A stretch of 59,170 bases of DNA, the filler included, from Sphacelaria rigidula (taxonomy: Eukaryota): NCBI GenBank assembly GCA_964200075.2. It is 9 parts of 9 records of this genome, joined end to end, with 100 filler letters (N's around TTAATTAATTAA, not from the genome) between each part and the next. Parts side by side here need not be neighbours in the genome. Positions count along the whole stretch, not along the records: positions 1 to 6,486 come from CAXNAA020019794.1; 8 more parts are not named here. One strand, written 5' to 3'. Within the stretch, counting starts at the first letter, position 1. The number at the start of each line of letters is the position of its first letter. Shown in pieces: positions 1-59,170 of this stretch. The notes under the pieces were generated by a model that saw only the letters and a program-made list of their open reading frames with translations, did not search any database and was not told where the DNA came from. The position numbers and the translations under genes were made by a program.

Positions 1-131
1 TGCTTCAGCAGCTGCGGCGGGCAGTAGGCATGCCTTGTGCTGTCACGAGACTGTCTTCTGCTGCCGTTGCAAAAACATGAAACGCCTCGTACTCTGGTAG
101 TGTACGTCAAGGCGCGTACATCACCTAAAAA

Positions 132-405
132 AAATCGGGGGCATTCACGATCTCGGAACGATTTCCCCCTTTTTTTTCGAAAAATCGGGGGGAACTGTTC
201 CGAGATCGTGACCCCCCGATTTGGTCCAAATCCGTGTCCATAAAATGCGTTCCCCGGTTTTTGTTCCCCCGCTTGTGGAAAAATCGAGATTCGGGCCTGA
301 CACAAAAGTGGGTCTAAGGCCAACTTGTATGGCAACGAATCTCGATTTGTTTGACACCCCGATTTTGACGGGGCTAACTCAAATTCGCGAACTCAAAATC
401 GGGGG
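132..405. repeat. Cluster of short inverted repeats (foldback/MITE-like)
   Basis: Three consecutive hairpins: tcacgatctcggaac/gttccgagatcgtga (~146-211), aaatcgagattcg/cgaatctcgattt (~280-348), ccccgattttga/tcaaaatcgggg (~357-404). The motif aaatcggggg recurs. Confidence 0.6.
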
Positions 406-944
406 AGGCGTTTTATGGTACAGACCGTACAGTATCACAGATTTGTGAAACAGTCCTGTACACAGACGGTCATTTTCTGCATGAGTGAGGTATTGCGTAC
501 TTGTGCATGAAGCCGAAGAGCAGGCAGGCGGTAAAGAATCCTTCGAGTACAGTGTCGTACCTTGGTAACCTGAAGTGATACAGTGCAGGACACTCCATCA
601 GTACCCAAGGTAAGACAAGACAAGTGAACGTGCGACGAAACGCGTACACCGTACTTCGTAGAAAAAGGTTTTGAAGAGTAAGGGACGCGGGCTAACACAG
701 TTTTCACTTTTGGGGGTCGGACGTTTAACTGCACACGCCGGACGGACGTTCTCTCCTTTCATGACGGGACAGCTTTCTGAAATTTTGAAAACAAAATAGG
801 ATCTTTTGGTTATTTCAACTTTGGAGGGACATATGCGCCTGGCAAGTCACTTTCCAAATGTGAACATGATGCCGATTCATTCAACAGATGGAGCACACAC
901 ATTCCACCCTTTGACGGGAAATCTATGTCTCTTGACTGAAAGAT

Positions 945-1298
945 GGTCGCGGGGGTCGCTCAGTTGGCAACCTCGAAACCTTCTGACGGTTGGGTCGTGG
1001 GTTCAATTCTCGGAGCGATCTGGGATTTTTTCCCATACCATGCCCAACAGTGGAGGGCGACGATGTCGTGGGTGCACAAAATTCGACTTGACGGTCTACG
1101 AGGGAAAGGGACTTCTGAACCCCCTTCTCGAGAAAAAAGAAAGGCAAGCACCGCAGAAGGAAGGTGGGGTACTAAAAACAAATGAAAAAGAAGAAGCGCC
1201 AGTGTTGACCTTCCTCCTGTGTGACCCCAGCTGGTGCGCCCACGTATACCGAAATGTGTAGATCGGCGTCCAGAATAGATGGGACAACACACACACAC
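945..1298 (+). mobile_element. tRNA-derived SINE, full-length copy (family 1)
   Basis: A-box-like tcgctcagttgg and B-box-like ggttcaattct in the first ~75 nt, a ~280-nt body, and a tail agatgggacaacacacacac. Clearly homologous to 16050-16399, 8557-8735 and 47285-47449. Confidence 0.85.
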
Positions 1299-1393
1299 TG
1301 CAGAAACGAAGCCGTACATCGAAAAGCATGCCACTGGGAAACGACCACAATATTTCGCCGCCAAAGGGTTAATTAACTCCTCTTTTTTTCCAA

Positions 1394-1496
1394 GGGGGGT
1401 GTACTCATGATCTTGCATGTCATAGTCAGATGACAATTGACCTCGTATTCCTACAGAGCCGGAACGGAGCACGCCGGGTTTTCGCCGGATCAGGCC
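1394..1496 (-). mobile_element. 5'-truncated LINE 3' end with C-run tail (subfamily B)
   Basis: Reverse complement ends ...gaggtcaattgtcatctgactatgacatgcaagatcatgagtacaCCCCCC. Flanked by the direct repeat tttttt(c)caagggggg at 1383-1399 and 1498-1512. Confidence 0.75.
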
Positions 1497-1858
1497 CTTT
1501 TTTCAAGGGGGGAAGGGAGGGCAAAAAGGACTGAAGGAACAGAACGCCGCGCAATTATGAAATCGGAACTAGTACTGCCCTTGCGCATTTGTTGAGTTCG
1601 GCGCATGTTTTCCCCTATCGACCGCTCCCATTGCAGGTGTAGGCATGCGAGTAGTAAAACAAGGTAGCATTCGAATCAAATGTCCGCATGTCTCTCCGCC
1701 TCGAAACAAATTCCCCCCAACCGCTGCTTGCCTCCCCAAACCTGTCCACTACACCGGCGATATTGTCCCGAATGTCGGCGTCGCGGCCAAAGACTTGATG
1801 ATTATTCATGAACACCCCGCGTGCTGCTCTCTCGTCGTTGGTTCGAAATGTTTTTCAG

Positions 1859-4346
1859 ATTACACCCCAGAAGCCCTTGCGGATCAAGTAGATTGGTCCG
1901 CGTTGCCTGGCGCCGGGAATCTTGCGGTGAAGGACACCTTCAACCATTTCGCCGGTTACATCAACATCGACCAAGAGAATGGTCGAAGAATTTTCTACTG
2001 GTTTTTTGAGGCCCAGGAAAATGCGGAGGATGCACCAGTGGTGAGCTAGGTGTATGTTAACCCTTTTGGAACTCACTGACGATTTCTATTTTTGTGAATC
2101 GGCATCACTCCGGCTTGAAAATGACTCAAAATGATGCCGATTCACAAAAATAGAAATCGTCAGTGAGTTCCAAAAGGGTTAACCCTTGGACAGTGACCCC
2201 CCGCTGGTGGACGGAGGTTGACACTTCACTTCCTGGGTTCAGAATCATTCCCTTGTCACAACTCTAAACGCCTACTCTACCGGGGAAGGGACCGGGAGTG
2301 TATAAGAGGCACACAGTTGTGAGAGTCATGACATATCATATATCATGACACCACGGCGGGACCCCTGGGGGGTCAGTTAAAGTGCGACAATCAATCAGTC
2401 AATCAGTTGTGAGAGTCATGACACAGACGGTGGAAAAAAATGTGCCAAGACACGCCCTTGAGTGCCGTCTTCACGAGACGAAAAAATTGAGAACGCATGG
2501 TGAAAATGGCAATGATACTGGCTATTTTCGTCTGTGAATGTTTTTGTTTTTTTTTGCCTTTCGATCGGTTGAGGGCTGATGACTCATGCTCATCGCCCCC
2601 CGGAATCACTAGGCCCTGTCTCCGCAAATTATTGTTCGATCGACAAGGTGCCGCGATTTTTCCCCCCCCCGATCTGATAAGTCGACATTCGTGTGTCCAC
2701 GTCATTCATGTTGAAATGACGACCTATCAGATGGGGGAATTTCCGTTCCCACCCCACTTCTTCGATCGAAAATGTACGGTGGAAAGGAAAGACTTCGATC
2801 TGATAGGTCGTGGTTTCAACTATCGTATTTCATTTCGAAGATGGTTGAATTTACGATTTATCACATTGGGGGGGTTTGGTTCCCACCCTACTCCTTCGAT
2901 CGAAGAGTAATGTGCCAAGACACGCCCTCACAAAAAATGATCATTCGGGAATGAAGAACGGTGAGAACGCAGGAACGGTCCGATGGGAATGCGCAGGGAA
3001 GCATCGAATGGTTGCCACGCTTGAGCTGTTTGGTGCATCATGGGGTGCACAGCCGGCATTCCTACATCAGTTGCCACTGTTGGCTCGTTGACATGTCACG
3101 TTTCCAATGTCCTTATTTTACTTTCGGTAAGAATGGCGAATGATTATCGTGTTCATGAGGTTGCGAACCGTCAGGATCATTCTCATCAGACTTCTACTCA
3201 TTATGCTAGCACGGCTTTTGAAGAATTCGTTTATCTTGAAAATAATGTTGGGTCGCTATTTTGTAAAACCGTGCGAGCATATTAAGTAAAATCCTAATCC
3301 TCATCATCACGAAGCAACCTCTCTCTCTTTTTTTTCTTGTCTCGTCCACGACGGGGCCTCATGCGAAGCACTTTACATGAAAACATTGTTTCCTCAGTTT
3401 TTGCTGTCAAAAGTCAACGTGAAGAAAGTATATGATGATGTCGGAGCTTTGGCATGCTTTCGCTTAAGCTGTGTGCGCGTGCGCACCGTTTGCATGAGTA
3501 AAAATCCAATTTGGTCTGCGATTGTGTCATCATTATTTTTTTCTTACGGCTTGAAATATTTAGGAAAATCAACACCAAAGAAATGGTATTCAATGCATTA
3601 GTAGATGGTGTACATGATTACAGCAGGCCACACTGCTTGTTCACTCAAAAAAACAGGTGGAGCTATATTGAATGAACGGTCGATGGAAAGATGGCTTGGA
3701 GGTTAGCTGGCCATGCTTGCACGGCTCAGGCGTTGAGGCCAGGCGGCATGTGTTTGCGTTCGTGTATTTATATTATGGATAACACTCTGGCGTTAACTCG
3801 CCATGCTTGCGCCAGTCAGTCGTTGACTTCGTGCAGTATGTATATATATATATATATATATGGTGATGTATTATATCAGGACGATACTCCGAAGTTAACT
3901 CGCCACACTTCATGATTTAGTCGTTAACTTCGTGTGGCATATTACTTGTATTGGCGTATTTTATAAGAACGATATGCCAAGGTTTACTTGTCGCGCGTCA
4001 TCAGCCAGTCGTTGAACTTCGCGAGGCATACTTCTTCGTTTTGTATTTGCACTTTTTAGTATTGATGTAATTTATTTGGACGATGCTCCCAAGTTAACTT
4101 ACCGCACTGTAAACGTAGTCGTTATCTTTTCTCAGTATGTTGTGCTGACTTGATATACTATACAATGTGCGTGTGCTTCCAGTGATCAATTGCTTCGATT
4201 CCGGGACCGATTTCCACTGACATCATATCCCCCTCTTGTTTTCTCGTTTTTTTTTTTTTTTTTCGTGGTTCAAGATATTGTGGACCAACGGTGGGCCGGG
4301 GTCAAGCGGCATGCTTGGTCTTTTGGCGGAACACGGGCCGTTCCAG
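1859..4346 (+). CDS. Serine carboxypeptidase (peptidase S10), two internal exons
   Basis: Exon 1859-2040 (DYTPEALADQV...HFAGYINID...IFYWFFEAQ...DAPV) and exon 4275-4346 (ILWTNGGPGSSGMLGLLAEHGPFQ). Both are bounded by ag/gt and join in phase 0. GY..V/I, FYWFFE, WxNGGPG and ExGPF are S10 family motifs. Confidence 0.9.
2061..2178. mobile_element. piggyBac-like MITE (118 bp)
   Basis: 47-bp perfect terminal inverted repeats CCCTTTTGGAACTCACTG...GAATCGGCATCA, a 24-bp spacer, and TTAA on both sides (2057-2060, 2179-2182). Confidence 0.85.
2314..2423 (+). mobile_element. Short retroposed 3' end with (CAAT)n-like tail and 20-bp target-site duplication
   Basis: Exact direct repeat cagttgtgagagtcatgaca at 2314-2333 and 2404-2423, around a 70-bp insert ending gtgcgacaatcaatcagtcaat. 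Similar to the minus strand of 50690-50760. Confidence 0.6.
3702..4130. repeat. Degenerate intronic tandem array, five units of ~90-110 bp
   Basis: The core gttaact...agtcgttracttc recurs at 3702, 3792, 3894, 3982 and 4093. Confidence 0.6.
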
Positions 4347-4891
4347 GTATTTGTAAATAAATAACACACAGGGCTACCAGATGAGGCGTGTTTCGGAGCA
4401 TTATTCATGAAACATTGAGACAATACCGTAGTATGTAAAAAAAATAAATACAGAACAAAAAAAACAGATTTGAAAGTGAGGGCTGTACAGGATCATGTGA
4501 TCCTGTGGAAGAGAGCAACGCATGCGGTTTATGCATACCTAACGTGACGTGACTAATCCCGCGATGTTGAAGCGACTATGCGGAAGTTCACTATGGCAGC
4601 ACTGGCTACCTTTCTGCGAGGTGATGATACAACGCGCAATACTTCAGCATTTCGGAGGCAACTTTCCTCTGAGATCGGAGTTACACGACTGCGCTACTTC
4701 AGGGTAAATGACTTGGTCTGCTGAATTGAACCCAAATAATTGTTTCCCGTTTTTTGTCCGTACGTTCTGTTTCACTTCAATATCATTCTCGTATGCGACA
4801 GAGAATGGTTCATACGACATTGAAACGTCCTTAGCTCACGAAAAATAAACATATGCCCTCGCGATTCTCCACAACGAATTTCAAAGCACTA

Positions 4892-5584
4892 GTACGAGCG
4901 GGGCCAGCCTAGAAACGGTATTAAGCTCTAAAAGCAATATCTCATCGACACAGACGAGCTGGGCCGTGATCCGCATATCGTACAAATCGTCTAGTCAAGG
5001 GGAAGGTGCCCATCTGCTCAAAAGTTTGGGCCGACATTTTCTCCTTGATTAAATCCCATGTCTAGTGGTTCCTATACCTAAGGGAGATAGCGCCAATACT
5101 AGAGTCTCTATGAAACTCCCGATCGATGAATTTAGCGGATAGCGACGAATTTCGGTGTGGAAAACCACAAAAGAGTGCCGAATAAAAAACAAAATGGGCC
5201 TTCATTTTTTTTTTTCATGAAGGTTAGGGCGTTCTCGTGAAGAAATGGTCTTTACCATAGTAGAACGCCCTGAACAAGTGAAAAAAATTGAACAAAAAAT
5301 CAACCTGACCTACGTTTTTTGTTGATTATGCCTTAGAGAGCGCGCACACAAAAATTCAATGCACGAAAACCAAACGTGGGCCGGTGAGTGGCTTGCGAAA
5401 TACTGTTCTGAATTTCTACCGACCCGGTTTTTGGTAGGCCAATGCTCTTTTATACCGTAAGAGTTGGACCCTGAAATTTGGTATGGACAATGAATAAGGC
5501 ATGAAAAAAAAATTACCTTGGTACCAGAAGTTTTTTTTTCATGAGTTAAGGGCTATGATCAGTTTTGAGGTATCAGTAAAATGC
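4892..5584 (+). mobile_element. Non-coding interspersed repeat (non-autonomous element)
   Basis: Colinear similarity to 34204-35207 on another contig (gtacgagc.gggccagcc...aagcaatatctc.tcgacac.gacgag...gagttggaccctgaaatttggtatggacaatgaa). Confidence 0.8.
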
Positions 5585-6421
5585 TAGGGCTGTGAACTGG
5601 ACCAGTTTGTACTGGCAGTTTAACTGGAACTGGTGATGAGGACTCCAGTTTTTCCAGTTTATTTGAAGTGTGCCGTTACCGGCTATGTACCGTTTTCAGT
5701 ATGGTTCGTTTATAACAAAGATGCTTACATGATTACGAACAAAATGACAATATTATTGAGGTCTGCACCTGACAACAACAGTACAGGTACAGACAGTACA
5801 GTACAGTACTCGTGGTCACTGCACCTTGAAGTGATATTGCGGATATCTGGATATATGCCAGGTTTATCGTCTCATCGCACGACATACATCTGGAATAAAA
5901 AATAGCACACAAACGGTAATCCGCCACCACAAAATGCAAAGTACACCATGGCTTGCAAATCAACTGCATGCGTGCTTGTGGGTCCGGACGTCAATCATCT
6001 TGCGCTCTAAATCTTATACATGGTTTAAAAAAAAGAAAAAAAATAACATACAAATACAAAAGAATAAATGGTATATAAAAAATTAAAAACTCGTGTCCAT
6101 GAAGCTTTAATTTTTCGCATACCTTCGGAGCCAAGTAAGGCCAAGTTATATTTATGGGTTTCAGCCATACATTGCACATCACACTTTCACGACAACAACA
6201 AGACCAAACAAACACCGCAATTGTCTGCAATTCTGCAATGCTTGCTCAATCAAGCTAGGAGCAACTATCCGCACCATCAATTTGCGCCCAATGTACGTCG
6301 CATCTTGTGGTGGAAAATAGAGCCAACAATCCTGGGCGCTACCTCACCCAAGTCGCCCCCAAATGGCTATTTATTGAGTGTTTCTTAATATGGAGAAAAA
6401 CAAATCCTACGATCGCCGCAG

Positions 6422-6486
6422 AGGGGGGAGGGAGTGTACTCATGATCATGCATGCCATCAGGGGGGGGGGGGGGGTACTCATGATC
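6422..6486 (-). mobile_element. Two tandem C-tailed LINE 3' ends (subfamily B) at the contig end
   Basis: G-rich tract + gtactcatgatcatgcatgccat, immediately followed by a second G-run + gtactcatgatc. Confidence 0.7.
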
Positions 6487-6586
6487 NNNNNNNNNNNNNN
6501 NNNNNNNNNNNNNNNNNNNNNNNNNNNNNNTTAATTAATTAANNNNNNNNNNNNNNNNNNNNNNNNNNNNNNNNNNNNNNNNNNNN
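6487..6586. other. Artificial contig linker
   Basis: N44-TTAATTAATTAA-N44, with stop codons in all six frames. Confidence 0.99.
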
Positions 6587-8334
6587 AAAACAAAAAACAA
6601 AATCTTTTAAAAAAAAAAAAAAAAAAAAATTTAATAAAGAAAAAAAAAAAAAAAAGCGCTAACAATACCCACACGACAACCGCCGTAACAGCGACAACAA
6701 ACTTTGCTCGGTGGCATGCGTACGGTCACCTGTTCAGTAGCTAATCCATGAGTTAAATCCACCCTGAGGCGCTTCGCTAGACCTGGGATTCCGCCAAAAG
6801 TCTCGTCGAGTCGTCTCCGGTTATCATCGTGCTCCTGTACCGTAACAGGGCCACGGAAGAAGGGGGGGCACAAAGCGACAGTTGCAGGTGAAAACAACTG
6901 TAAAAGTTACCGTCGACACCCACCCTACCGAACCTGGGCCGGCAAAAGCAGGCGTGCTCCGTACTGACTCTATGGAGTGCAAAGTCAATGGTCTCATGAA
7001 TACGTCAAGAAGAATCATGAGTACACCCGCTTCCCCCCTACTACAGTGTAGGGGGCACCATAGATACCGTGTGTGGGTAGGTAGAAGGGTAGGAAAACGA
7101 ACCACCAAGGACTCAAACCACAGTTTCTCGCAAGAGGTAGGTCGGTGCGAAAAAAGAAAAAAAAGGGTAGTCAAGACGACAACAGCTCAAGGACAAGACG
7201 ACCACCGCAAGCAGTGTTGACACCATCACAAAATCAAACGGAACAGCAAGACCAACAACGCCAACAACGCCAACAACGCCACCCACCATTTACAACACCG
7301 ATACCAAAAACAACGAACGCAGCAGCAGCAGCATCTGAATATCCCCATATTGAGGCCCGTGGCCATCGCTTACACGGACAAAGACGCCTTTGCGTGCTCA
7401 TTACGCGGGGGTGGCGGGAGGAAAAAGACAGCTTTTTGCATGGGGATACATAGGTGATACGGTGTACATACGTGGTACAGCGTACATGCGTGCTTCGGTG
7501 TACATGCGAGATACAGTATGGGTACATGATACGGCATATACACGTTATACGGGTAGGGCTTTTACGAAACAGCTGCTCTGCATTCAATTATATCCGTTTA
7601 TGCCAAGCACATTCCGGAATCACCAGTAAAACAACGTAATACAGTAAGCGCGAGCGCAAATTACAACAACATTTCACGTACTTGTTCTACTCCGGTCCGA
7701 ATGCCATGAAATGTTTAGTGCATAACATCCACCAGAATCTTGTGGGATCGGTACATGCAGTGCAGCGATCCCGCTTCATGAAATGGGCTCTGTTTGGGTA
7801 TGTGTCCGCATAGCTGATTCCCGTGGACTTGGATGACAACCATGGCGTCTCATGCCTCCACATTATCCTGAACATTACCCCCTGAAATCCCGTGAAGATA
7901 CCTGACGCAACATTTTTTGCACGTTGAGTGCGCATGGTACGACCATACCTGAGCCGACGAAACCATTCCGATCAGCTTCTCTTTTGGAACCATCTCCAGG
8001 GAAGCGTACGCCGTACTGTGTGACATATCTTTCGACCCTGCATATATCAAGCCGCAACAAACAAAAGGGCACACAGAAACAGCAACAACAAACGGAGGCA
8101 GCAGGCAGGAAAACACCCCCAAGTATGTGTTTCCGTTCGTGAAAGCAGATTCATATCATGGTTTCGGTTGGACATATCTCTTACCGTGTCAGAGGAACGA
8201 CACAGCATCGCGCACAGTAGTCGAACATACTGGGAACATAATTTTTTTGTTTGTAGATGACTCAACACTCGATACCTTGAGCTGTCAAGCCTCATTTCGG
8301 AACAATATCATCGAAGGATATCCTTCCCCAACAC

Positions 8335-8397
8335 AAGGGATGCGTGGTCAATGGTCAAACGACTGAGGCAAGCAACAATAAAAGCACGCCCCCTCCC
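8335..8397 (+). mobile_element. 5'-truncated LINE 3' end with C-run (subfamily A)
   Basis: aagggatgcgtggtcaatggtcaaacgactgaggcaagcaacaa...ccccctccc matches the 3' end of the LINE at 46101. Flanking repeat ccttccccaaca (8322-8333) / ccccctcccaaca (8389-8401). Confidence 0.75.
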
Positions 8398-8556
8398 AAC
8401 AGCATTATGTGTGTTGCCGTCATCCACACCCTGGACAATAGAATACACGGCCAAAAAGTGTACTGCGTACAGTAGCGACGATCGCGCCTATTGCAACAGA
8501 CGAAAGATTCCATACTGTACGCAGTACATTTTTTACAATAGAATCTTTTGTCCAAG

Positions 8557-9954: not shown

Positions 9955-10046
9955 GGGGGGGGGGTACTAATTTGTTGCTTGCCTTATTCGTTTGACCTTT
10001 GACCATGCATCCTTTCGAGACGGAGCACTGTTCCTAATCCTAATAG
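9955..10046 (-). mobile_element. 5'-truncated LINE 3' end with C10 tail (subfamily A)
   Basis: Reverse complement reads gtgctccgtctcgaaaggatgcatggtcaaaggtcaaacgaataaggcaagcaacaaattagtaCCCCCCCCCC. Confidence 0.8.
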
Positions 10047-13072: not shown

Positions 13073-13172
13073 NNNNNNNNNNNNNNNNNNNNNNNNNNNN
13101 NNNNNNNNNNNNNNNNTTAATTAATTAANNNNNNNNNNNNNNNNNNNNNNNNNNNNNNNNNNNNNNNNNNNN
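13073..13172. other. Artificial contig linker
   Basis: N44-TTAATTAATTAA-N44. Confidence 0.99.
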
Positions 13173-14681: not shown

Positions 14682-17600
14682 ATCACCGCGAACAGCCCGG
14701 AGTTCCGCCCATTCGTGTGCGGCAGCGTCTTCGCAGAAGCCCCGCTTTTCCCCGGAGAAACTTTCTACGGCACGATGGATGTGTTCATCGAAAAATGCAA
14801 CCCGAACGAGATCGTTTGGTCGATGGTGTCCATGATGCGTGAGGCCCCAGCAGCAACAGAAATGCCCCTCAGACCGTAAATATAGAAGAAAAATCGGTAT
14901 GACATACGGACCATGCGTATTACTCGTAGTCTTTCATTTCCATTCTTTTTTTTTTTTCGCGCTTATATTTTGATATCCATGTTCCTCTTTCTCCCTTTTT
15001 CTCTTTTTTTTTCTCTCTCTCTCTCTCTTGTATTCCCTTTCCCGATTTCCCTTCGGTGAACAATTTCGATGAGTTCATGACAAATGACGTTCATATGGAC
15101 GACCCCATCCCTCCCGATCTGCCTAAACTATTTGGGGGAACTTCTAGCCTTCCCTCCCCCCAAATGGGTATGTGCGAAAGCACGACTTTTTGGCTAAAAA
15201 GTGTCCATTTTTCACCCCGAAATCGAGGCACAAGTGTGTTTTCGCACGTACCCTTTGGGAGAACGGAAGGCTAGAAATCCCCCACAATAGTTTGAGTGAG
15301 GACGGGAGAGACGAGATCGTCCGTGTATGAAGGTCACTTGTCATGAATTTAGGTCAGGGAAAGCACGGCTTTTGACTTGAACCTCATTTTGTTTTACAAC
15401 CCCATTTTAGAGAATCCACCGTCGACTGTCCATTCTGCACTTGATAATGTTGTAATCGAGCCCCCCCCCCTTTCCCGCGCATGGTCAATCTCGCGGCGCG
15501 TTTCCCGCCGCCGGGATTGTGGCAAAAAAAAACCCGATTCAAACGCAGTCAGCACCAACGACGGGTTTGTGGGCGTCGACTCCGAGAAGCTCGTGACTAA
15601 AGGTGCATCCAAGACCTTCGCAGTGGCCTTCGACGCAGGTGAGGGGTAAAGGTTTTTGTTTCTTCAGTTCTTCTGTGGAAAAAGACATGTGCAGCGACCA
15701 ACTGTCATCAACAACAATATCAGGGAAGGCGAGCTGATCCGAATACTCCTGAAACCATGCAGCTCCCGCTCCCACGGACCTCTCTGTCAAGGCGTTGCAG
15801 CATAGTTTGTCCAAATGAAATCCTTATCTCGGTTGGCTCCAACTGAGATTAGGATCAAGCTAAATAATCTTCTGGATCCACAGTTGGCAAAATGATGCGC
15901 AGACAGCCGTGCTATTCACGGGGCGGAGAGGCAGAGGTGGGAGGGGGGGAGGAGTTGACACCTTTGCCTTTTCTTTTATATCACTCTCAGTTTCCCTATT
16001 TGTAGGGGGCGAAAACGTGGTCTCAAGGGATCAACCCGTCACTCCCCCAGTGTTGTCGTCCCATCTGTTCTGGACGCCGGTCTACATCTTCCGGTATATT
16101 TGGGCGCACCAGCCGGGGTCACACAGCAGGAAGGTGAACACAGGAGCTTTTTTGTTTACTTATTTGTTTTTGTACGCCACCTCCCTTCTGCGTTGCTTGA
16201 CTTTATTTTTTATCGCGAGAAGGGTCCAGCAGTCCCTTTCCCTCGTCGACCGTTGAGTCGAATTTTGTGTACCCACGACATAGCAGCTCTCCACTAAAAG
16301 GCATAGTGTGAGAAAATCCCAGATCGCTCCGAGATTTGAACCCACAACCCAACCATCAAAAGGTTCGGAGGTTACCAACTGAGCCACCGGGGCGACCGGC
16401 TTCCAGTGCCCCCAGTGCGCCCTTAACATTGTGAACAGAGGACTGGGTCAGGACTCTCGCACCCCGTAGACTCCCGTCAATTCATTCGTTGCTGTTTGCG
16501 TCGTCACGCCTTCAAGGACGAAAACCGGCGTGTTCTTCGAAAGACCGTATCGATCGGGCTTCGAACCCGCATCCTTCCGCCGTAACTGGGAGACTTGCTG
16601 GATCACGGAGGCGCGTGCTATGGTAGTATCGATACTTATCATCTCTTCTTTGTTCCTGGAACGGCTGAATGACCTTGTTGGCAAAAAGGCAAAAAGGCAC
16701 TAGTGATGACTCACAGAGCATAGATGCGCCTGAATTACGTAAATGAGTCATGCTACGATACGGGGGGTGTACTCATGATCATGCATGCGATAGCCGTAAG
16801 ACCATTGACTTCGCATCCCTTCAATGCCGGGACGGAGCACGCCAGGCTCGCACTCAAACCACCAAGCGCGAAGCGCCGTGGTGTGCTCGGCGAGTCGCAT
16901 GAAGGGTGAGCTGCATCCTGCTAAGGTTGGTCGGCCCGAAGCCTACTGATAACCTACAATGAGTTGCTTTATTTTCTGGTATCGTCACTTACGATAGGGG
17001 AGGGGGGGGTATTTTGGGCCGTTTCCCCCCACAAAACTCCACTTCAATCGCCGTTGAAAGCAGCCAACAGTTGTTCGAACGCGCTTAATTCCGGAAGATA
17101 ACGCTCATTCATACTGCTTTACAACGCTTTTACCCATATACAAGCTCACCGCGAGTGATCTATGAGCACATTTTTTTGTGAAATCGAATACCCTCCCCCC
17201 CCGTAGCATGGCTCGTATATGTTGCATGCGGGAAGATAAATATTGTACGGTACTCCTATTCTTCAATGGTTTACGAGCCATTCTGGAATTCAAATGTGGC
17301 CTGGTGGCGTTACCCAATCGCTGCGGTGTAGGGAAAAGAGCAGCGTACGTAAATTTTCGCTCGATTGCATGAAAATGAGCGGGCGCGTGGAAACGGCGAA
17401 GACAGGCCCAACGATTCTTGTTTTATTCTCTACGTCGCCGTCGTTTGACCTCGTCGTCGTTTGAGCGTTACACCCGGAAACAATACTGGCGGAAACATCC
17501 ATAGAAATGTATGGGGCTTCCATACCCTTGGTAATATCATAATATCTTGAATTCCCTATGCGAAGTGTTTCAGGGTGTGGGACTTGAATTGTTGACGAGG

Positions 17601-19658: not shown

Positions 19659-19758
19659 NNNNNNNNNNNNNNNNNNNNNNNNNNNNNNNNNNNNNNNNNN
19701 NNTTAATTAATTAANNNNNNNNNNNNNNNNNNNNNNNNNNNNNNNNNNNNNNNNNNNN
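19659..19758. other. Artificial contig linker
   Basis: N44-TTAATTAATTAA-N44. Confidence 0.99.
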
Positions 19759-22800: not shown

Positions 22801-25482
22801 CGCTTTGTTTCGTGTCGTCTTCGAAACGTGGAGGCGTTCTTGTGTATACAAAAATAAACTCAGGGAGTAAAAAAGAGTGCTCCTCCTGAACCAAGTGCTC
22901 CCCAGGTGAGTTCGAGCAAAATGGTCTCACAAGATGGCTGACAAGGTGATGTCAACAAGCTACTCTGCATCCGCGCCAACACGTAGACACAGGAGTGTTA
23001 TGCGTTGTTGTCTCACCTCGAAAAAGATGGCGAGTAAACCAAAACCAGCGGCGGCTGCATAGAACGCTCCGTCGCCGACCCGATACGTTACCACTGTCAT
23101 GGGTTTTGTCACGATCCAAATGTTGTTGCCATCACACACGACAGGAAGTCCAACGTGGAGATGGCGGTTGATTACCCAGCGTAGCCCACCGATGCGCAAC
23201 GTCCCAAGAGGGACAGAAAAGCGAACAGACACAACGAGAAAAAATAATAAGAAAGGCAGGAGGATGCAGGTAAGGATCAGCGACAACAGGCGACACACAC
23301 AGAGCACAAAAGTCCACTCTCAATTCCCCCTCCCACCCACCCGCTGCCCCGTGAAGTCAAAATAATCCAAGCGATACAACACCGAGGAGAACTGCACCAC
23401 ATACCGAGTATGATAATAATGGCGGCCTTCATGGCAGCGCGCACGATGTTGAGAAATAGCTGCCCAAACGGGCCGCGGTGTCCCGCGAACACGTACAGGG
23501 CCTGTTGCACGTCCCACAGGTCCTGATCGAACAAGGGAAAACAAAAAGCACGATTCAAACACCAGAAGCGAACGCTCATCAACACGTCACACACCTTAGT
23601 ACGGGAATAGTGGAAAACTATCGTTCCACAAATATCACGATGCTACCTGTCGTACTGAAGTCTAAGCAGCGGACACATCGTTCGGGACGTTGACATTCAT
23701 GTATCAGGCGCCGGAGAATGGCATGGGACGGGGAAGGGATATTGGGGGGAAGGGGGGGGAAAGAAGACCTGGGTATGTTGGGCCAATGCTGAGCGTGAAT
23801 TATGCTGGTGAGGGGTGGCACCCAAAGGCGCGTGCAGTACAAACAGCAGCTCAATTCTTCGGGTGCAGAGCGCCGGAACTAGTCATTGCCCATCTATGTA
23901 AGCGCCAACTTTTCGTGACTTGACAATCACGTGCAAGTGCTGCAGCAGTGAGTATACCACAGACAGCTTCATAGTCCGGAAGCTCAACATGCGTGTGTTT
24001 GCAGTGTCGTGACTTACCCTTACGAAGGAGCACACGTAGAGAGTGATTACGGGCGCCAGCCAATTCTCTGCGTCGCACAAATTCTCTCCGAATAGCTGAT
24101 CCTCATCGTCCTCATCTTCCTCTTCCACGGATAGCTGGCATTTCGCCCCTACGATCATCAGATGCAGCCCGACTATGTGCAGGACGTGGACCTGTGCATG
24201 CATAAAACACAGAAGATTATATTTACAGTCAGAAGCGACCATGTGTACGAGTATCACACCATATCTGTGGGCGGGGAAAATTCATCTGATAAAGCAGTCA
24301 AGCTTCCACCAAGGCGTGCAGACACGCTGATCAAATTCGAGCAAACATCACGGTCTCGACACATGCCAGCCACGACGTCTTTGAGTTCACTCGATTGCTT
24401 TCCCGTCAACCACAGACAGGCAGGCCCGGCGAGGCTACCGTCGCTACTGCGTCATTCGACATTTCGTCCGGGTCATGCTCTGATATTCACATCGTTTCAA
24501 AACCGCAAAACCTCACCCTCCAAAAGGAGAAGATTGGTACCAGCCAGCTCTGCCGCTCCACAAACGTTTTCTGGAACCTGATGCAGTGAGTGACACAGCG
24601 AAACGGCAGCGGAACGGCGCCGACAAGCACCAAAAGACAGATACGGAAAGGAAGACACGGAAGGAATTAAAGGAAACGAAGGAATTAGTACAAAAACAAA
24701 GCAAGGTTGAATCGCACGCATAATATTCCCTTTATCCTCGAGCAAGCACATGTACATATATATACATGATAAAAACGAGAAACAGGTGAATGAAGTGGGA
24801 GGGCAGGAGAAACTGAGACAAACGACGTACAGTAGGCCCAACCACACGCACAACGTATATAACGCAGGGATAACATAACAAAATGCACCACATGTGAGCG
24901 TTTCGCTCATGTCTCGGCCACGAAGGTCAATCGACGTGTGAGGTCCCAGCAAGCGGGCTCCATCCGCATCGTCCGCGACCACGAAGCCGGGCATGAATTG
25001 ACGGGGGCTGGGGGGGGGGGGGCGGACCCCTTTTTTGTTGCCTTAGTCGTTTGACCATTGACCAAGCATCACTTTCGAGACGAAGCAAAACTGACGGGGG
25101 GAGGGGGTTGGAGGCTAGTTCGCTTTAGAAATCCGTGTCGACAACCTCACAGGCTCGCAAATTTTATCGACAACAACCATCGACGTTCACTTCACATGAC
25201 CAACCAACTCACTCAGCTCGAGCCACAGTGCTCGCTTACACTGCTGCTTATCTTACACGCGGACAATGTTTGCGGTGGGGGTACCCACCTCTTTGTGAGG
25301 GTCTTCCCGTCGAACATGGTAGTGACGTTAAGCGACAGGCAGGCCTCCTGCCAGAAGATCTCGTTGAAATCGTCGTAGTTTCTGACTTCGGTGTGGTCGA
25401 TCACCCCGTGCCCGATGTCCGCCAGCTGCTTCGCGAGGATATCATACGCCGGAGTGATGATATCGTCGAGGTATACGGGGAT
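19839..25482 (-). CDS. 1,3-beta-glucan (callose) synthase, GT48/FKS1 family, ten internal exons
   Basis: Phase-consistent exons 25482-25289, 24577-24517, 24191-24018, 23522-23405, 23093-23017, 22603-22424, 21740-21475, 21119-21000, 20449-20332, 19925-19839. Motifs RNYDDFNEIFW, KTFVERQSW, RYTLFWLLVL..K.AFSY, IYFLDMQIW and FAHVWNEIVDAMREEDIISDRE. Confidence 0.93.
25010..25088 (-). mobile_element. 5'-truncated LINE 3' end with C-run (subfamily A), in a glucan synthase intron
   Basis: G13...ttgccttagtcgtttgaccattgaccaagcatcactttcgagacgaagca. Flanking repeat aa(t/c)tgacggggg at 24996-25007 and 25089-25100. Confidence 0.75.
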
Positions 25483-26426: not shown

Positions 26427-29400
26427 CCTTTGCTGGTGTTGTAGTGGGGGGCAGGGGTGGAGAGCATAGCTAAATTGCTCGGTGGCGACGACAAGCACGC
26501 GGGGGCGGGGAAGAAGCACCGGAGGACTCATCACTTCCTCACCGTTAAGTTCGAAGCCATGTGGTGTGTGATCGTCGAGAAATACGAGGCGGAGAAGGGT
26601 GTTGATGCAAGCCGTCAGGGAGAAGACGTGGTGTCGTGGCTCCGGGAACGGGCCTCCAACCATGTGACCCTGAGATTTTGGCTGCCGTTCCTCGTGAATC
26701 ACTACCCGGCGTACCTGGGCTTCCGGATGGGCAAACGGATCAGGGATTACGGCCTGAGGACTGCGGCACTGCGGGAGGCCGCGCCCATATTCACCCTCAC
26801 CAAGAAACTGCGATACCAGCGTCTGTGCGCAAATCACCTCTCCCATGTGACGAGGATGACAGACGGTGACTTCCACGCGGCGGGGACATTATTCTCGGTC
26901 AGTTTCGGTAGGGGAGAACATCACAACGTAGCCCTCGACGAGTACCAGGAGATGACGAATAAGGTGGTGAAATCAGCGATCGGCAGAATCACCCCCGGCT
27001 TCATAAACAAGCTGGCTCCGATTTGCGAGAGTCGGCAAGCAGCCGTACACGCGGTGGACGACCAGCTGTATCCAACTCCGAAAGAGCGCGCCAGGTCAGC
27101 GGAGGTTATCAGGGACAGGGCGGAGGCGGTGGAGAAGGTCTTGCCATTCGTGCGGAAGTGCACCGCCTTCTCCCAGGATGGAGCAGAGAAGTTGAAGTCC
27201 TTCAGTCTAAGGGTGGTGAATGCAGAGGACCAGAAGAAAATGTTGGCGGCGAAGAAGATATCGTCAGAGAGATGGGACGAGGTTCTGACGGTGGTGGCAA
27301 AGGGGGGTCCGCACGGAGAACGGCTGAAGAAGACCACTTTCCCCGTATTCAAGGCACAAAACACGACCACAAAAGCTTCGAAGAAACCACAGAGGAAAAG
27401 TGCGCTGCAGAAGGACTACAAAGACCTCACCCTCCAGGGCAAGGAATATCACGCTGTACTGGCGGATATACTGAGCAGTGCGCGCCTGCGAACGGCGGAG
27501 GAACTGGCGATACTGAAGCACAGTCTCGGGGCGGTGTTGCCTCTGGCGATGGCACACGCTGGCGACGGGGGCGGCCGCAAAGCGAATAAGTCAAAGGGAA
27601 TATGACAATTCATGCTGCGCGAGTGCGCGGATGCCGTCCAACCGTCGCCGCATGCCTCAGTTGACGCTTCTGTTGTAGACTTGGCGACGGAACTCCATCG
27701 AACACCCCCATCCAGCGTCCTCAACGCCGATGCGGTGGCGCTGCTGCCGGAGTTTAGGGATAAAATCCTCACCGAGTATTCGGCGTTCGGGGCCACTTTC
27801 GTCGGCTTGTGCTATGACTACTCGCCGCTCGTACCGCCAATTAAAGCTGCAGAACAAGCCAGCCGAAAGGCCGGCCTCGCCGGTTCACATGGCGTGTTCG
27901 ACCCCGCCTCTTCCGACGAAGTCCCGACCGGCGGCGATTTTCAGGCATATCTCCGCGCGCACAATAACAGGGACGATATTGCCGCGGCCATCTGTAAATA
28001 CTTCGTAGGACACAGGGACGGCAAAGGCCTAAGAGGGGACACGACATTCATCTTCACCGGTATATCATGGCCTCGTCCACTGCACCCTGTCCTCCCAATG
28101 CCAGAAGGAACTCTGCCGTCAGCTGCCCCCGCGGACCCCCAACAACCGTCGCCAACATATGAGCACTCTGTAATTATTGCAGCGCCCGAGTCGGAGAACA
28201 TCCCGCCAGGCGACAGTGGTACGAGAGGGACTAGACCTGCGAAGGGTGTAACCTCCCTCCGCGCCCCCATTTGTGGGTCGATCGTCCGAAACACTCAGAT
28301 ATATGGGTCGGCCTCTGGCGGCGCCGCCCGGGCCCCCACCCCCCAAGTGCTACGCGCGCGTAGCGTGAACGTGGCCGCAGCCCTTGCGGCAGGTGATCTC
28401 GGGCGGCGGTTTTCAGACGGCGAGGCCACCAGCGTGCGGCCCGGCGCGGCCTCCCGCGTCCAACCTGGAGCAGCACTTTCCGGCTAAACGGGGACGGGGA
28501 CGGCCGGACGAGGTGGCAGTTGCGCCGCCGATATGGCACTTCCACGACATGCCGCGGGCGACAGCAGTGTCTCTGGTGGTGCCAGCGCCGCAGACTCGTC
28601 GGGAGTGGGGCAGGGGAGGACTGCCGCCAGTCACCCCGGCGATGCACCTGATACGCTGGTTTGGGGGCATGGCAGCCCGAGGCGTGTGCCTGGCGCCCAC
28701 ATCGGTGAGGGGGAGCTGGCCATGACTCACAGGATTGTACACCAATGGGAGTATGCACCCGTTTGCGACCTGCGTAGCTGGATGGTGACGTCCATAGACA
28801 CTGATCAAGTTATGCATGTCTTGTTGGCTATGGCGATCGGTGCTATACCGTGGAGGGGAGACCACAATGTGGATGTTCAGGTCCGGCAGAAAAGAATCAG
28901 GGAGCTGAGGAGTTCATCCTAGTCAATAGAGTCTACGAGGCCGTATGCAACAGCGAGGAATGGGCAGCGGGTGCAGCCGCAGAGGGGAGCGTGGTGCCGG
29001 CGTGGCTGTCGGACGCGGCCAAAGGGGTGCTATTCGTGGTTGTGTACTTCTTGGCCGGGTGCGATTTCTTGCCGGCGATGTACAACATGGGATTCAAGAC
29101 CATGCTGCGTCACGTGCGAATGACCATCGCCATGCCTCGCCTGTTCACCGAGCCCATCGTTTTTGTCCACGATGGCACATGGCGGGTGCGCACAGAGGCC
29201 GCCGTGAAGATGCTGTGCGTATGTTACTTCAAGGAGCATGTGGATGTATTCGACACGAGTTTTTCGCGCGGTGCCGCGGACCTATTCGAGTCTACCGCGA
29301 TCAATAGGGATGCCCAGAAATTTGCACATGTCGTGCAGGAAACGATCTGGACCGCCAAAGGAGCAATGGGTAAAAAGAACTGCCCGAGATGGGATGCGCT

Positions 29401-29818
29401 GGACCTGCACGTTCGCAGGGCCGACGCCGTCTTGGAATATTGGCAAGGAGCCATTCAGCTACCCACCCCTCCGACCTCGTTCGAAGGCCGCGGCTGGTGC
29501 ACAAGTGACGGCGATGACACAGCGCCTCTGACGAAGGAGAATGTGGTGTTCAAACTGTCGCCGCATGCTCTCCTCATGCAGGAGGGGCGAGTGAAGTTCC
29601 TCAAGTGCCAGTGTAAACCAGACACGGCTGCGAGGCACAAATGCAAAAACTGCAATTGTGGCAAGAGGGGCAAGCAATGTGTATATGGGTATTGTGGATG
29701 CAACGGTGCATGCGGACCTGCCGCGATGGGCACAGATGACGCAGCGGCTACGACCATGTCAAGGGGGCATGCAGTGGGTACTACATCGAGGATGGCGGGG
29801 CCCGCAGACGGTCAGTGA
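26427..29818 (+). mobile_element. Decayed AcademX-like DNA transposon gene (transposase C-half + XPG/PIN nuclease + Cys-rich zinc finger)
   Basis: ORFs 26457-27605, 27612-28487 and 28533-28922 share one frame and are separated only by single stops; one frameshift near 28900 leads into 28850-29818. Motifs in order: GKKHRRTHHFL...EAMW; NVALDEYQEMTNK; VVDL...CYDY...IKAAEQASR; HIGEGE...SIDTDQ; LAGCDF...GFKT; LHVRRA...W...P.P....GW; CQC...CKNCNC......C....CGC...C. Confidence 0.75.
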
Positions 29819-32930: not shown

Positions 32931-32996
32931 GGGGGGTTACTCATTTGTTGCTTGTTTTAGTCGTTCGACCATTGACACGCATCCCTTTCGACACGG
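32931..32996 (-). mobile_element. 5'-truncated LINE 3' end (subfamily A) with G-runs on both sides
   Basis: gggggg-ttactcatttgttgcttgttttagtcgttcgaccattgacacgcatccctttcgacac-ggggggggagggggg. Confidence 0.8.
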
Positions 32997-34189
32997 GGGG
33001 GGAGGGGGGTGAGCCTGGGGATAAGGTGTAGGGATATAGATCTGGTTTACTCAAACCTAGGTTTGAACCCTGAGTAGCCCTACGTTGAAAGAGTTGGATC
33101 ACGTAAGGTTTTGCGAGGAGGAACCGAGCATAACGTGGCTAGATTCTTGCGTGAACAGGTACATGTAACTGCAGAAAACATTCTGCACACAAACACACAA
33201 TTTACAACCCTGGACACACTGCTGGCGTTTGCATCCTGTCGCCATCCTGTCGCTCTACTCTTGAAAGCTGCCCCATGTCCGTCGTGAAATTCGGCCGATG
33301 ACGTACACATACACATACAGTATAGTACATCACACGGTACTCGCCCGGCACAATTTTTGGCATCTAAAGTTACCGTTCCGACCGAAATGTTGAATATATT
33401 GATCTGGGAGCGAGAACAGTTTTGCGTGTTACTTTGCACGGCCAACGCTAGAGTCTCTGTGTCGGTACGTGTGAGCTGTTGAGTAAGATAATTCCATGGC
33501 ACACCGAGCACGTGAGGACATAAGGAGACCAGTTATTTTAGGCTCTCAGAGATGAACTTGCTAAATTGGAATGAGGTGAGAGCTCGCTCGACTGTCCGAA
33601 TCTAGCTGACGGAAGGGGACTGGCCGCATTCAGAGGTTGGGGCAGGGGCGCCGAGTTCGTGTTGCACTATACAGACAGCGCCGTACATCACTAAATATCG
33701 TTGGTCTGTGCAAATCCAGCTTGGCTTCGCGTGTCGAGTGGAGGGGGTTGGGCTCCCTCTCTATCGGTCCGAATGGTCGTCGCGGCACCGGATATTTTGG
33801 GGTTGGTATAATATCATTTATTTTCATTGTATCGCGTCTGTGTTTTTTTTTTTTACCCTGTTTTATTTTACTTTTATTTCCTTCTACACCTTATTTTGGG
33901 TAGTCGGCCCGTGACCACAGAAGACGTCCGCATCAGATGCCCGCTATGGAAGTAAGATGGTACTGCGCAAAGACCGGAACGATTGTTTATCTGAAGACAA
34001 CATCAACGACAACATAGGGTGCTCGTAGCGCCTTCCTGTGCTTCTGACGGTACTGTACTGTTTGTACAGACACTACAGCAACATCACGACATCTCTTTTG
34101 ACTGTGCAAACCCAGTTGCCGAGGGGGAGCTCGTCGCGTGTAGAGTTGCAGCAGGGGTACTGAGCTCGGTAGGGGCTTTTGGTTTACCT

Positions 34190-38590: not shown

Positions 38591-38902
38591 GTAAACAACG
38601 ATTGGGATAGTCTACGTCATGCTATCCATGATGCTCGCATGATGTGTACACCTAGCCAGGGGTGTGTGTGTGGTTTCGAGATCTCATGATGATTCGGGTG
38701 GGTTGCTCGATTGTCTTCCGTGCCCTGTGCTGTGAAACCCCCGGAGGTCGGTTGCCAGGAGCATGACTGCGCGCGTATGTTGGTGCCTGTGTTGCGTGTA
38801 AGAAGTGAAGCGAGTGTGTGTGTCGTGTGTGGTAGCCTTACACGTTTGGGGTTGCACGCGAACCGACCAACCCGACCGACGCAACTGTGGTCTGTGAGGT
38901 TT

Positions 38903-39371: not shown

Positions 39372-39415
39372 CCCTTGGACCGCGAGGATACTCTTCTGTT
39401 GAATCGGCATCAATT

Positions 39416-46100: not shown

Positions 46101-47150
46101 TGTCTTAATCGTTTGATCATCGACCACGCATCCCTTTCGAGACGGAGCACCGTTCCTCCTCTCATAGAGACAACTCCAACATCCCGGCGCTCATTACGTT
46201 TCTTCCATACATAACACAAAAACCTTTTACGTATCTCATCCCCGTCTGTTTCGCCGTCTCTGGCCACCATCTATCTCCTAGTATAGCCATAGTTTTTCCC
46301 CTACCGTCTAACGCATCAAACGATTTCATGCCACCTTAGTTCACGTCCCGTATTTTCCCCTCTAGCACGTCCTGTTCCTCCTTGTATAGTTCACATTCTG
46401 TCACTATATAACTTCTGCTCTCTATTGCTTCACCACAGGGGCAATTCTGTGCATATACTTCCTCCTCCTTCCGACGACTGGTATATCTCTTTCCTCTTTC
46501 TGGCAGGTGCAAGTCCCCCACCCGGAATCGCAGTTTCATATTTTTCGCAGCGTCCATTGGGCCACGTAAACATGATTTCATCCCTATCCCCTCTCTCAAC
46601 CCCCCGTGTATCTTCAGGCGTTCTTTCCCGTCTACTTTACGTCTGAGCGTTCTTTTCTTCCATATTTCTATAATGTCTCTTACTTTTGTCTTGTACCTCG
46701 CGCCTTGAGATATGGACAGTATTTCGTCTTGGTTTCCTCCTTTCTTCTTCCCCACTTTTTCGACGTTTTTATCCCACCTTATGGCACGTCCTTTCGTACT
46801 TTTTTTCCTAGCTGGCAATCTCTTTCTCGGCATGTTCTTTAAGCTATATTGCCATCACATTTTCCTCGTGTCTCTATTTGTTTCAAGCCAGTGCATTCCT
46901 AACTCTGCTCTCAATGCTGTATTACTCGTCGTTTTCGAGAATCCAAGTAGCTTCTCAGCTGCTGCCATCTGTACTGTTTCCGCTTCTTCACCAACTTCAC
47001 GTTCCCCTCCCATACTTCCGCACATCACAGCTTTGGTACGATCACGTTCATGAGGATACATCGCTTAACCCTAGTGTCTAGCGGGTCTCTGAGGATCACG
47101 CCCACCCTTCCTATCTGTGCCGTACCCTTTTCCATTACTTTGCTGATGGG
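46101..47150 (-). mobile_element. Decayed non-LTR retrotransposon (LINE), 3' ~1 kb of ORF2
   Basis: RVKRCILMNVIVPKL / EVW / AAAEKLLGFSKTTSNTALRAELG resemble the region downstream of a LINE reverse transcriptase; KLRFRVG...CPCGEAIESRSYIVTEC is a degenerate C-terminal CCHC knuckle. Several stops and frameshifts. Its 3' end matches the short C-tailed repeats. Confidence 0.85.
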
Positions 47151-47284
47151 GTGCAGGTCGCACCTTCCTGATGGGGGGCGCACAATGCTATAGTTAGGTT
47201 TGCTGAAAAAATACAGATTTGGAGATGCCCATGGAATACTATATGTCAGAGTCATACCTACTGAGAATGTTCACGGAGAAAATG

Positions 47285-52685: not shown

Positions 52686-52740
52686 GCGAGGTCAATAGTC
52701 TTATGACTATGGCATGCATGATCATCAGTACACCCCCCCC
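52686..52740 (+). mobile_element. LINE 3' end with C8 tail (subfamily B) at the contig start
   Basis: gcgaggtcaatagtcttatgactatggcatgcatgatcatcagtacaCCCCCCCC. Confidence 0.75.
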
Positions 52741-57600: not shown

Positions 57601-59056
57601 CCTCCGCTCAACCCTTAGACCGGGAGAGTAGTCAGTCCAGTTGGATCATGCATAATTTTTTCACACCCTGTACAACTACAATAGTTGGTCGCTGTTTCTC
57701 AAACAGGTAACTGTTCAGAATCGTGTGCAACTAGTTGTTTCCTAACAACGAACTATATTATTTTTTCAAGTGATATTGACGGCGATTCAAGAGATGACCG
57801 ACTCTAGCCGTGCCAGGGTTGAAAATGCTCCGTTGCATATGGACACAGCACACACCATTTGTGAGGCAAACCCAACGCCAACCCGAAAGAGACAACTTTA
57901 GCGGCTTGCTGGTAGTAGAACTAGACCGACGTACCCTTAGCATTTCCGAAATAATCACTGTAGGAATTCGCGCTCGACTCTCATCTCTCAGGGATAACGA
58001 AGCGCAAAAACCTTCATCTTCATGAAAAATCGGACGGCCCTTGCACGCATAAAAAAGAGGAAATCAACAATAAGAATAGGAACCAACGACATTGTGCAGA
58101 CAGGAAATTCTGACCCTCAGAAAAAGATTTTTTGGGAACTGGATGGTAGTGTGGTTTTCGGTAGAAGTGCGTACGTAGCCGAGAAAGTTCGAAACATCAT
58201 CTCTTTCAAGTCAGTGCTGTGATGCCCCTCGCAAGAGATGCGCAACAAAGGTCCTGGAGGGTGCACGCGGGGCAATGTCCATCGGGTTCGTTTCGGTGCT
58301 CTCTCCGACCGCACCTGATATGTTTCATTCTCCGGCGTGCCAATTGGCCCCACCACTTTCGCCAGTCCAAAATCTGCAGTACGGGGTGTCGGTTGCGGTA
58401 GGCAATGCTATGCGGTTACCGAACAGTGCAGCACTACCATCAAGGTAGTAAAGAATGATCTTCTCAAGCAGGATACCATTGAATCGTACACAGCCAAGGC
58501 CTACGCCCCGGTAACCGGGAGAGCTTACTACTGAGAGCACATAACAGACACCGAGTACACGATACAATGAAATGCAGAGGCACGTAATGCAAACGTTGAA
58601 CATCGAACAATGCCTCGAAGGAAAATATGCCATGTTCGTATGCCGGACAAATTTTGACCTATGGAAAATGACTCGAATGACAGAAAATCTAATCGAAAGA
58701 GGGAGGGGGGAGGGGGGGTTATTCGTTTGTCGTTTACCCAATAACCATTCAACACGCACTCCTTTCGAGACAGGGCACCGTTCGTACCACTAATAGATAC
58801 CTCCAACAGTTGAGCGCTCATTGAGTTTCTTCCATACAGTTCACAAAAGCCCTACACATATCCCATCCTTCATATTTCGCCGTCTGCGGTTAAAAGCCCG
58901 AAGCCCCCCCCCACCCTCCCCCTCCCCCGGAGAAGACAATTTCACCAACTGAAATTTACCATTCTTGCTACCATTCCTGCTACTGCTGCTGCAAGTCTAC
59001 TCGAGAAGCTCACCGATCAACTTGAGGTTTCCATTCTGTGCGAATCCGATGTTCAC
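54655..59056 (-). CDS. TKL-type protein kinase, 3' four exons with a long low-complexity C-terminus
   Basis: Exons 59056-59014 (VNIGFAQNGNLKLI), 58373-58315 (DFGLAKVV...YQ), 56892-56731 (MTGEVGSYRYMAPE...KADIYSW) and 56265-54655 (GERPPLPKEWP...AWSEDLTARPT, then a Ser/Ala-rich tail). Phases are consistent; the 3' end is uncertain. Confidence 0.9.
58700..58888 (-). mobile_element. 5'-truncated LINE 3' end (subfamily A), ~180 bp
   Basis: G-rich tract followed by sequence colinear with 46101-46260 (ctttcgagac...gcaccgttc...ctccaaca...gcgctcatt...tttcttccatac...tttcgccgtct). Confidence 0.8.
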
Positions 59057-59103: not shown

Positions 59104-59170
59104 GGGGGGAGGGGGGGGGGCTGTACTCATGATCATGCACGCCAAAGTAATCAGACCATTGACCTCGCAT
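59104..59170 (-). mobile_element. LINE 3' end with C-run (subfamily B) at the window end
   Basis: G-tract + ctgtactcatgatcatgcacgccaaagtaatcagaccattgacctcgcat. Confidence 0.75.

Follow-up and report, generated by a model that had tools for sequence, protein, structure and literature searches.

The window (the whole stretch of Sphacelaria rigidula DNA that was analyzed, 59,170 nucleotides) consists of nine unlinked ~6.5-kb contigs, which were sorted by size and joined by artificial N-TTAATTAATTAA-N linkers every ~6.57 kb (6487-6586, 13073-13172, 19659-19758, and five more). Its insertions of two element families, designated A and B, are listed in Table 1 together with a host MITE. Several contigs begin or stop within these elements or within G/C runs, which makes the family a likely cause of the assembly breaks. 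The original prediction described five copies in the window as insertions targeted to G/C homopolymers. These copies are real and come from two families: those at 1383 and 16754 belong to family A, and those at 8322, 24996, and 32931 belong to family B. Four of them had been described as bracketed by direct repeats containing the homopolymer, and inspection confirmed all four pairs to the letter: the pair around the 1383 copy, the pair at 8322 (CCTTCCCCAACA) and 8390 (CCCCTCCCAACA), the pair at 16754 (TACGATACGGGG) and 16990 (TACGATAGGGG), and the pair at 24996 (AATTGACGGGGG) and 25089 (AACTGACGGGGG). The 8322/8390 repeats match at 10/12 positions and their C-tracts are interrupted, the longest pure run on the far side being 4. 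The G-runs reported on both sides of the 32931 copy cannot be judged as a duplication, since this copy starts exactly at a linker and one flank is missing. No duplication was seen around the family B copy at 9955..10046.

Table 1. Element insertions, flanking duplications, and host MITE in the window.
Position	Strand	Feature
1383..1399		TSD copy at element 3' end, T7-CC-AA-G6, TTTTTTTCCAAGGGGGG
1400..1497	-	Family A copy, ~95 nt, 5'-truncated, RTEX-N1-like, non-coding; 88% to library copy
1498..1512		Far TSD copy, T6-C-AA-G6, TTTTTTCAAGGGGGG; then rest of G-rich tract AAGGGAGGG
6423..6486	-	Two very short family A ends, head-to-tail, each behind a G-tract; second meets contig edge
6929..7038	+	Degraded family A copy, C-tract downstream
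8322..8401	+	Family B LINE 3' end, 52 nt, ...HKGCVVNGQTTEASN; interrupted C-rich TSDs 8322-8333, 8390-8401
9955..10046	-	Family B LINE 3' end, 82 nt; G10 at 3' junction
16745..17214		Host MITE; TIR GAGTCAT(C/G)CTACGATA + G-tract at both ends; left terminus interrupted by insertion
16754..17009	-	Family A copy, 221 nt (16768-16990); TSD TACGATA(C)GGGG; near tract G6, far tract GGGGAGGGGGGGG
24996..25101	-	Family B LINE 3' end, 63 nt; TSD AA(T/C)TGACGGGGG; near tract GGGGGCT-G13
32931..33009	-	Family B LINE 3' end, 59 nt; G6 at contig edge; far tract G8-A-G6
46101..47249	-	Longer LINE fragment, 5'-truncated; C-terminal ORF part, CPC-x8-(H/Y)-x4-C motif
52686..52740	+	Family A 3' end with C8; contig edge cuts 5' part
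58705..58868	-	Family B 3' end, diverged, behind G6-A-G7
59104..59170	-	Family A 3' end behind G6-A-G10; cut by window end

Among the other fetched sequences, no flank match crossing the junction provided a paralogous empty site for the 1383, 8322, or 24996 copies. Contigs of 4/7 public runs were also compared with positions 1-6486, and the matches listed, which were dominated by repeat-derived contigs, included no joint skipping 1394-1512; likewise, the listed pieces from this swamped comparison included none bridging the site. The window holds several further features. Another high-copy repeat of ~220 nt occurs at ~950-1300, 85 nt from the 1383 insertion, and again at 16050-16316, and was present in ~30 fetched loci. 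Three long consecutive open frames (386, 293, and 337 aa) occupy 26445-29818 on the plus strand; they are GC-rich, end with a cysteine-rich CxC motif, and are possibly part of a large DNA transposon. Two 78-nt copies, each with an internal palindrome (ACTCACCAGTCAGCGCTGACTGGTGAGT), are located 399 nt apart at 38898-38975 and 39297-39374.

Using the 16762-16990 copy as a query, we fetched 30 genomic copies and found that one end is fixed while the other is variable. A position table on the C-ending strand (n=143) gives the fixed end as ...ATGAGTAC(A/G)C, which leads into a C-rich tract. This C-ending strand is the sense strand, and the G-runs that had been assigned to 5' junctions are located at the 3' junction of the element. 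Families A and B share this 3' end: family B comprises the ends, truncated on their 5' side, of an APE-RT LINE that has a CCHC motif at its C-terminus, and family A is its non-coding partner of ~550-600 bp. Three full-length-looking family A copies (491-552 nt) have a common 5' end, 36/49 (~73%) of the last 49 family A columns match family B within a shared 3' stretch of ~50-65 nt, and the family also occurs as tandem copies. Rfam searches of four long family A copies, which are old, yielded only 2 chance-level hits and no match to a Pol III head (tRNA, 5S, or 7SL) at E<=0.5. For family B, an RT domain (PF00078) is contiguous with the element end in L151, L153, and L156 (E=7.9e-27 in L153). 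Its closest full-length relatives, P0002 (1,360 aa) and P0003, each carry an APE endonuclease (PF03372) and RT in a single ORF with a C-terminal CxC-x8-H-x4-C motif. The APE domain is shown via this homologue because the local copy (L156) is broken: residues 1-1360 of P0002 map onto L156, with residues 112-535 at 52%, and its last residues (GCVVNGQMTKASNK) are those encoded by the family B ends in the window. The longer fragment at 46101..47249 aligns at 50-78% to P0002 residues 965-1356 and has lost its 3' end at the contig edge. The homologues are single ORFs of 1,328-1,360 aa on contigs of 4.9-5.6 kb. In L156, the ORF spans ~4.5 kb, no 5' boundary was found, and a search for the far duplication of this near-full-length copy did not find one. 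In family B, the anchor contains the stop codon, TGA, which leaves about 5 nt before the element end, so that the RNA would finish with ...AUGAGUAC(A/G)C(C)n and lack poly(A). At the protein level, all named close relatives are from Ectocarpus sp., which makes a brown algal host probable. Among the best hits, the Ectocarpus sp. proteins are 54-60% identical to the family B RT and have the same C-terminal ...GxVVNG.... A second LINE group in this genome (L154, L155, and L162), which we take to be RTE-like, is only 25-33% identical to the family B RT, compared with 70-73% within family B itself; one of its copies, L154, has a C-rich tract into which a 63-nt family B end has inserted.

The assembly comprises 244 Mb in 27,214 contigs; homopolymer lengths are unstable and were read from this fragmented assembly. 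An unselected sample of 60 stretches (600 kb), picked by contig number alone and drawn only from contigs >10 kb, contained 50 copies, which roughly extrapolates from this contig class to 20,000 genome-wide. Overall, the copies exhibited the traits of a LINE, having a common 3' anchor, lengths of 26-1,812 nt (50 unselected copies), variable 5' truncation, and TSDs of variable length. The lengths are also clustered, with a hot spot of 5' truncation in family B: 15/30 family B copies from the unselected sample and the window measure 59-69 nt (e.g., 25025-25087 and 32938-32996), and family A lengths cluster near 41-51, 94-103, and 265-305 nt. These clusters could reflect either RT stops or microhomology, or else a separate ~65-nt mini-element. 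Other structural variants include full-length family A copies with a second occurrence of their 5' ~45 nt about 50-100 nt before the 3' end (L022, L025, and L029), a longer ~890-nt family A form (L013), and inverted arrangements in which a pair of element 3' ends stands back to back (L181, L016, and L165), the first two of which have the same flank on both sides. The inverted arrangements resemble 5' inversion or twin priming. At L201 (G000:C35:3630-4255), TAACCCTAACCC lies between the element 5' end and the far duplication, and we presume it to be telomere-like, as a TTAGGG repeat.

Comparable elements have been annotated in Ectocarpus, where RTEX-1_Ec32 and RTEX-2_Ec32 are described as single EN-RT ORF elements of ~5.5-5.9 kb with thousands of copies (Dinatale et al. 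2025, PMC12477816). The supplement of that study (MOESM3) labels them "(C)n 3'" or "(C)n termini/TSD" with a "C-rich" TSD, and family B similarly has a (C)n 3' end and a C-rich TSD. Family B is nonetheless a different family from another alga, and is likened to these entries by annotation rather than by sequence. RTEX-N1_Ec32 is described as a 607-bp non-autonomous partner with an unknown 5' head, a shared 60-bp 3' end, a tandem arrangement, and a C-rich TSD (PMC12477816). Family A is like the ~600-bp RTEX-N1/N2_Ec32 entries of the same study in its size, its shared 3' ~60 bp, its tandem copies, and its lack of a meaningful Rfam match, while its 3' identity of ~73% compares with the 83% reported there. 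It differs from them in the repetition of the ~45-nt 5' segment near its 3' end and in its ~890-nt form. More generally, LINE/SINE pairs with shared 3' ends are described in PMC3747384. From these annotated features, the element behaves as, and probably is, a brown-algal RTE-X LINE with a non-autonomous partner. The A/B element is not a new kind of element, and the novelty implied by the original prediction was overstated, as the portions of the literature covered already annotate C-rich ends and TSDs in Ectocarpus RTE-X elements and (C)n targeting in Chlamys elements (PMC12477816, PMC8557442).

We compared the junctions of the unselected copies with the background of the same 600 kb. On the 3' side, a C run of at least 5 occurs within 20 nt in 38/49 copies against a background of 1.7%. 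On the far side, the 30 nt upstream of the 5' truncation point contain such a run in 29/47 copies against a background of 2.4%, while G runs of at least 5 are found there in 0/47; with 5 head-to-tail copies removed, the far-flank value is 25/42. The runs at the junctions are clearly not at background level, as had been anticipated, but 18/47 far flanks lack a C run of at least 5. Among 146 distinct copies, 119 had both flanks usable for a duplication test, and 25/119 have an exact duplication with at least 4 non-C letters, compared with 2.1% of swapped pairs. A few of these 25 are due to chance or inverted structures, and the automated count also missed some visible duplications (e.g., L167 and L176). 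Most copies thus have no cleanly recognizable duplication, either because they are old or because their duplications are mostly C. The use of runs at the far junction increases with their length, from 13/2,573 for C4 to 13/682 for C5, 13/296 for C6-7, and 15/133 for C8 or longer, and this smooth rise indicates a tract preference rather than strict site specificity. Tract interruptions are T on the C strand in 21/26 cases, compared with 177/425 in the sample, and (CA)n is present at the 3' junction of 4/146 copies. Strict homopolymer specificity consequently did not hold, since interruptions of the tract are common, as few as 2-3 G can be sufficient, some insertions are in (CA)n, and one empty site (L030, below) has no run at all.

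Several copies, including the one at 16754, have the same flank, which belongs to a MITE of 190-360 bp and forms its terminal inverted repeat. Its terminus consists of GAGTCAT(C/G)CTACGAT, one more base, and then a G-tract, and has 2,155 exact matches in the genome. Among the first 100 listed of these matches, nine uninterrupted pairs of inverted matches represent empty MITEs, and a G-rich tract is present in 18/18 of their termini (median 12 nt by the script's measure). A 4-bp TSD is exact in 5/9 of these MITEs and agrees at 3 of 4 letters in 3 more, and the termini begin with GAG. The MITE may be Sola2-like, a group with GRG termini and a 4-bp TSD; the termini of Ectocarpus Sola2-1 differ. 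The 3' anchor of the element is located 2-22 nt past the terminus in 161/2,155 exact termini, compared with 3.2 expected from the anchor frequency in the unselected sample. At the same distance on the outer side of the terminus, the anchor is present 6 times, and the opposite-orientation pattern inside the MITE tract has 1 match genome-wide. Empty sites were also rebuilt from uninterrupted paralogues for three other insertions. The C-rich tract occurs once in each of five distinct paralogues of the L154 site, and a paralogue of the L034 site has C5. At L030, however, no run is present in any of four paralogous empty copies despite the C7 of the filled one, and this is evidence against a pre-existing tract. 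The claim that the G-run was present before insertion is accordingly well supported by the empty and filled MITE termini together with the far-flank enrichment, with L030 as the counterexample. The G-tracts of MITE termini and the tails of earlier copies are insertion hot spots.

The filled MITE termini are also informative about where the target is opened. Among the 161 filled termini, the 100 that were listed have near tracts of 2-19 nt (median 9; at most 5 in 27/100), which are shorter than the empty tracts with their median of 12 (p=0.001). Given that a near tract of only 2 nt can occur, no long C tail must be copied. We fetched 31 filled loci (33 junctions) located away from contig ends, and the MITE interior resumes in 27. 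In these, the far tract exceeds the near tract in length (p=0.017, n=27), and more of the unique terminus is duplicated where the near tract is shorter (rho -0.50, p=0.008). The near tract plus the duplicated flank has a median of 15 nt (range 5-24), as measured by a script that scored some visible duplications as zero. This pattern fits a G-strand nick at varying positions within the tract and a stagger of ~15 nt. Thus, insertions enter pre-existing G/C-rich tracts in one orientation and generate ~11-18 bp duplications that start inside the tract. Mechanistically, the G strand would be nicked at variable positions inside the tract, and the resulting primer 3'-G end could pair with the terminal C residues of the RNA, for which 2-3 pairs may be enough. 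The paired end would then prime reverse transcription, and a second nick ~15 nt away would yield the duplication. The geometry is as predicted for a C-rich RNA end priming on a nicked G-tract, whereas the annealing itself is inferred, in analogy to how L1 poly(A) is proposed to pair with T-tracts. Overall, the preference for G-tracts is real and strong, and the originally proposed mechanism is largely supported. It is very likely that short 5'-truncated insertions of an APE-RT LINE and its partner into G-tracts explain what we observed.

We considered whether the C/G runs could have been made by the element, by copying of an oligo(C) tail, by slippage, or by untemplated addition at the two junctions, rather than reflecting a choice of target. 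L030, which is one of the three paralogous-site cases, would be explained in this way, as would the near tract plus flank reaching 20-24 nt, where part of the G may have been templated by the RNA or gained by subsequent expansion, and 33/150 of the C runs of at least 8 in the sample are at junctions. However, the full tract in all 18 empty MITE termini largely refutes element-made runs as the sole cause, the shortest near tracts exclude an obligatory long tail, and the two sides sometimes share the same interruptions (L167 and L063), leaving this explanation quite improbable. We consider it very improbable that G-quadruplex DNA is the target, whether because the structure draws the endonuclease or because it supplies breaks. 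A four-tract motif is present in 12/47 far flanks and use does rise with G content, but when runs of matched length were compared in a crude motif test with small numbers, the motif changed their use only slightly (at least 8 nt, 6/44 with the motif vs 9/89 without; 6-7 nt, 1/17 vs 12/279; 5 nt, 1/26 vs 12/656). The quadruplex involvement raised in the original prediction was not upheld by the runs of at least 8 nt, and the MITE terminus, a 51-fold hot spot, usually has a single tract.

A variant of our preferred explanation places the specificity wholly in annealing, such that an unselective endonuclease or host breaks would open the DNA and only priming would select 3' G nicks able to pair with the C end of the RNA. 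The variable nick position, the graded dependence on run length, and the short 2-3 base pairings are all consistent with this variant, as are the (CA)n insertions, which match the ...ACAC end of the RNA (e.g., L014). Pairing of 2-3 bases alone would nevertheless use short runs far more than the value seen for C4, and the steep rise with length points to longer pairing or a nicking preference, and we regard it as less likely than not; sequence data cannot separate specificity in nicking from specificity in priming. It is extremely improbable that the copies are Chlamys-type Penelope-like elements. Chlamys elements insert at (C)n and (CA)n repeats according to the sections of Craig et al. (2021, PMC8557442) covered here. 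Such elements also insert in tandem and inverted arrangements, and the head-to-tail arrays, the inverted ends (L016 and L181), and the ~45-nt terminal repeat inside family A are reminiscent of them. Chlamys elements nevertheless have a GIY-YIG endonuclease and a telomerase-like RT and are unrelated to the A/B element, whereas the family B end encodes the C-terminus of an APE + RT protein and family A shares that end in 36/49 columns; in addition, Ectocarpus Chlamys-1 is annotated with an (A)n 3' end in the PMC12477816 table. For family B, a Chlamys identity was rejected outright, as only APE and RVT_1 were found, with no GIY-YIG.

With G-tract insertion by an APE-RT LINE and its partner as the preferred explanation, a functional comparison can be drawn with LINEs that target simple repeats. 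Waldo, Mino, Kibi, Koshi, and Dong have ACAY, AC, TC, TTC, and TAA targets, and the same passage of PMC3812793, which lists no G/C mononucleotide target, presents pairing of the L1 RNA poly(A) with a T-tract at the nicked target as its proposed priming step. The A/B element is like these LINEs in having a simple-repeat target and an RNA 3' end that would pair with it, and unlike them in its G/C mononucleotide-rich tract, purine-rich nicked strand, lack of poly(A), and graded preference. Nicking of a G-tract would fall on the purine strand, the reverse of the T-tract rule of L1. The PMC12477816 table gives the C-rich label without an empty-site test, a rate, or a nick position. In the literature covered, we found no published test of G-tract targeting by an RTE-X element, which does not establish its absence from print. 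Given that C-rich ends and TSDs were already on record for relatives, what is new here is the empty-site test and the placement of the nick inside the tract. A one-word annotation of a C-rich TSD is thereby converted into a tested statement of a pre-existing tract, a fixed orientation, and an in-tract nick, which also covers the absence of an obligatory tail and of any sign of G-quadruplex dependence.

We also entertain, tentatively and as a possibility we would not favor, that the APE endonuclease nicks G-tracts itself and that a tail-less RNA, ending shortly after the stop codon, borrows its priming C from the target duplication of its own donor copy. If true, target and tail would perpetuate each other, seeding G/C tracts through brown algal genomes. 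For studies of the reaction itself, the MITE terminus provides about 2,000 near-identical natural substrates for nick-site mapping, and priming by a LINE on G instead of T would broaden the range of chemistry known for APE endonucleases and for priming. For the genome of this alga, the preference helps to explain many of the G/C runs, tandem arrays, and contig breaks in its assembly.
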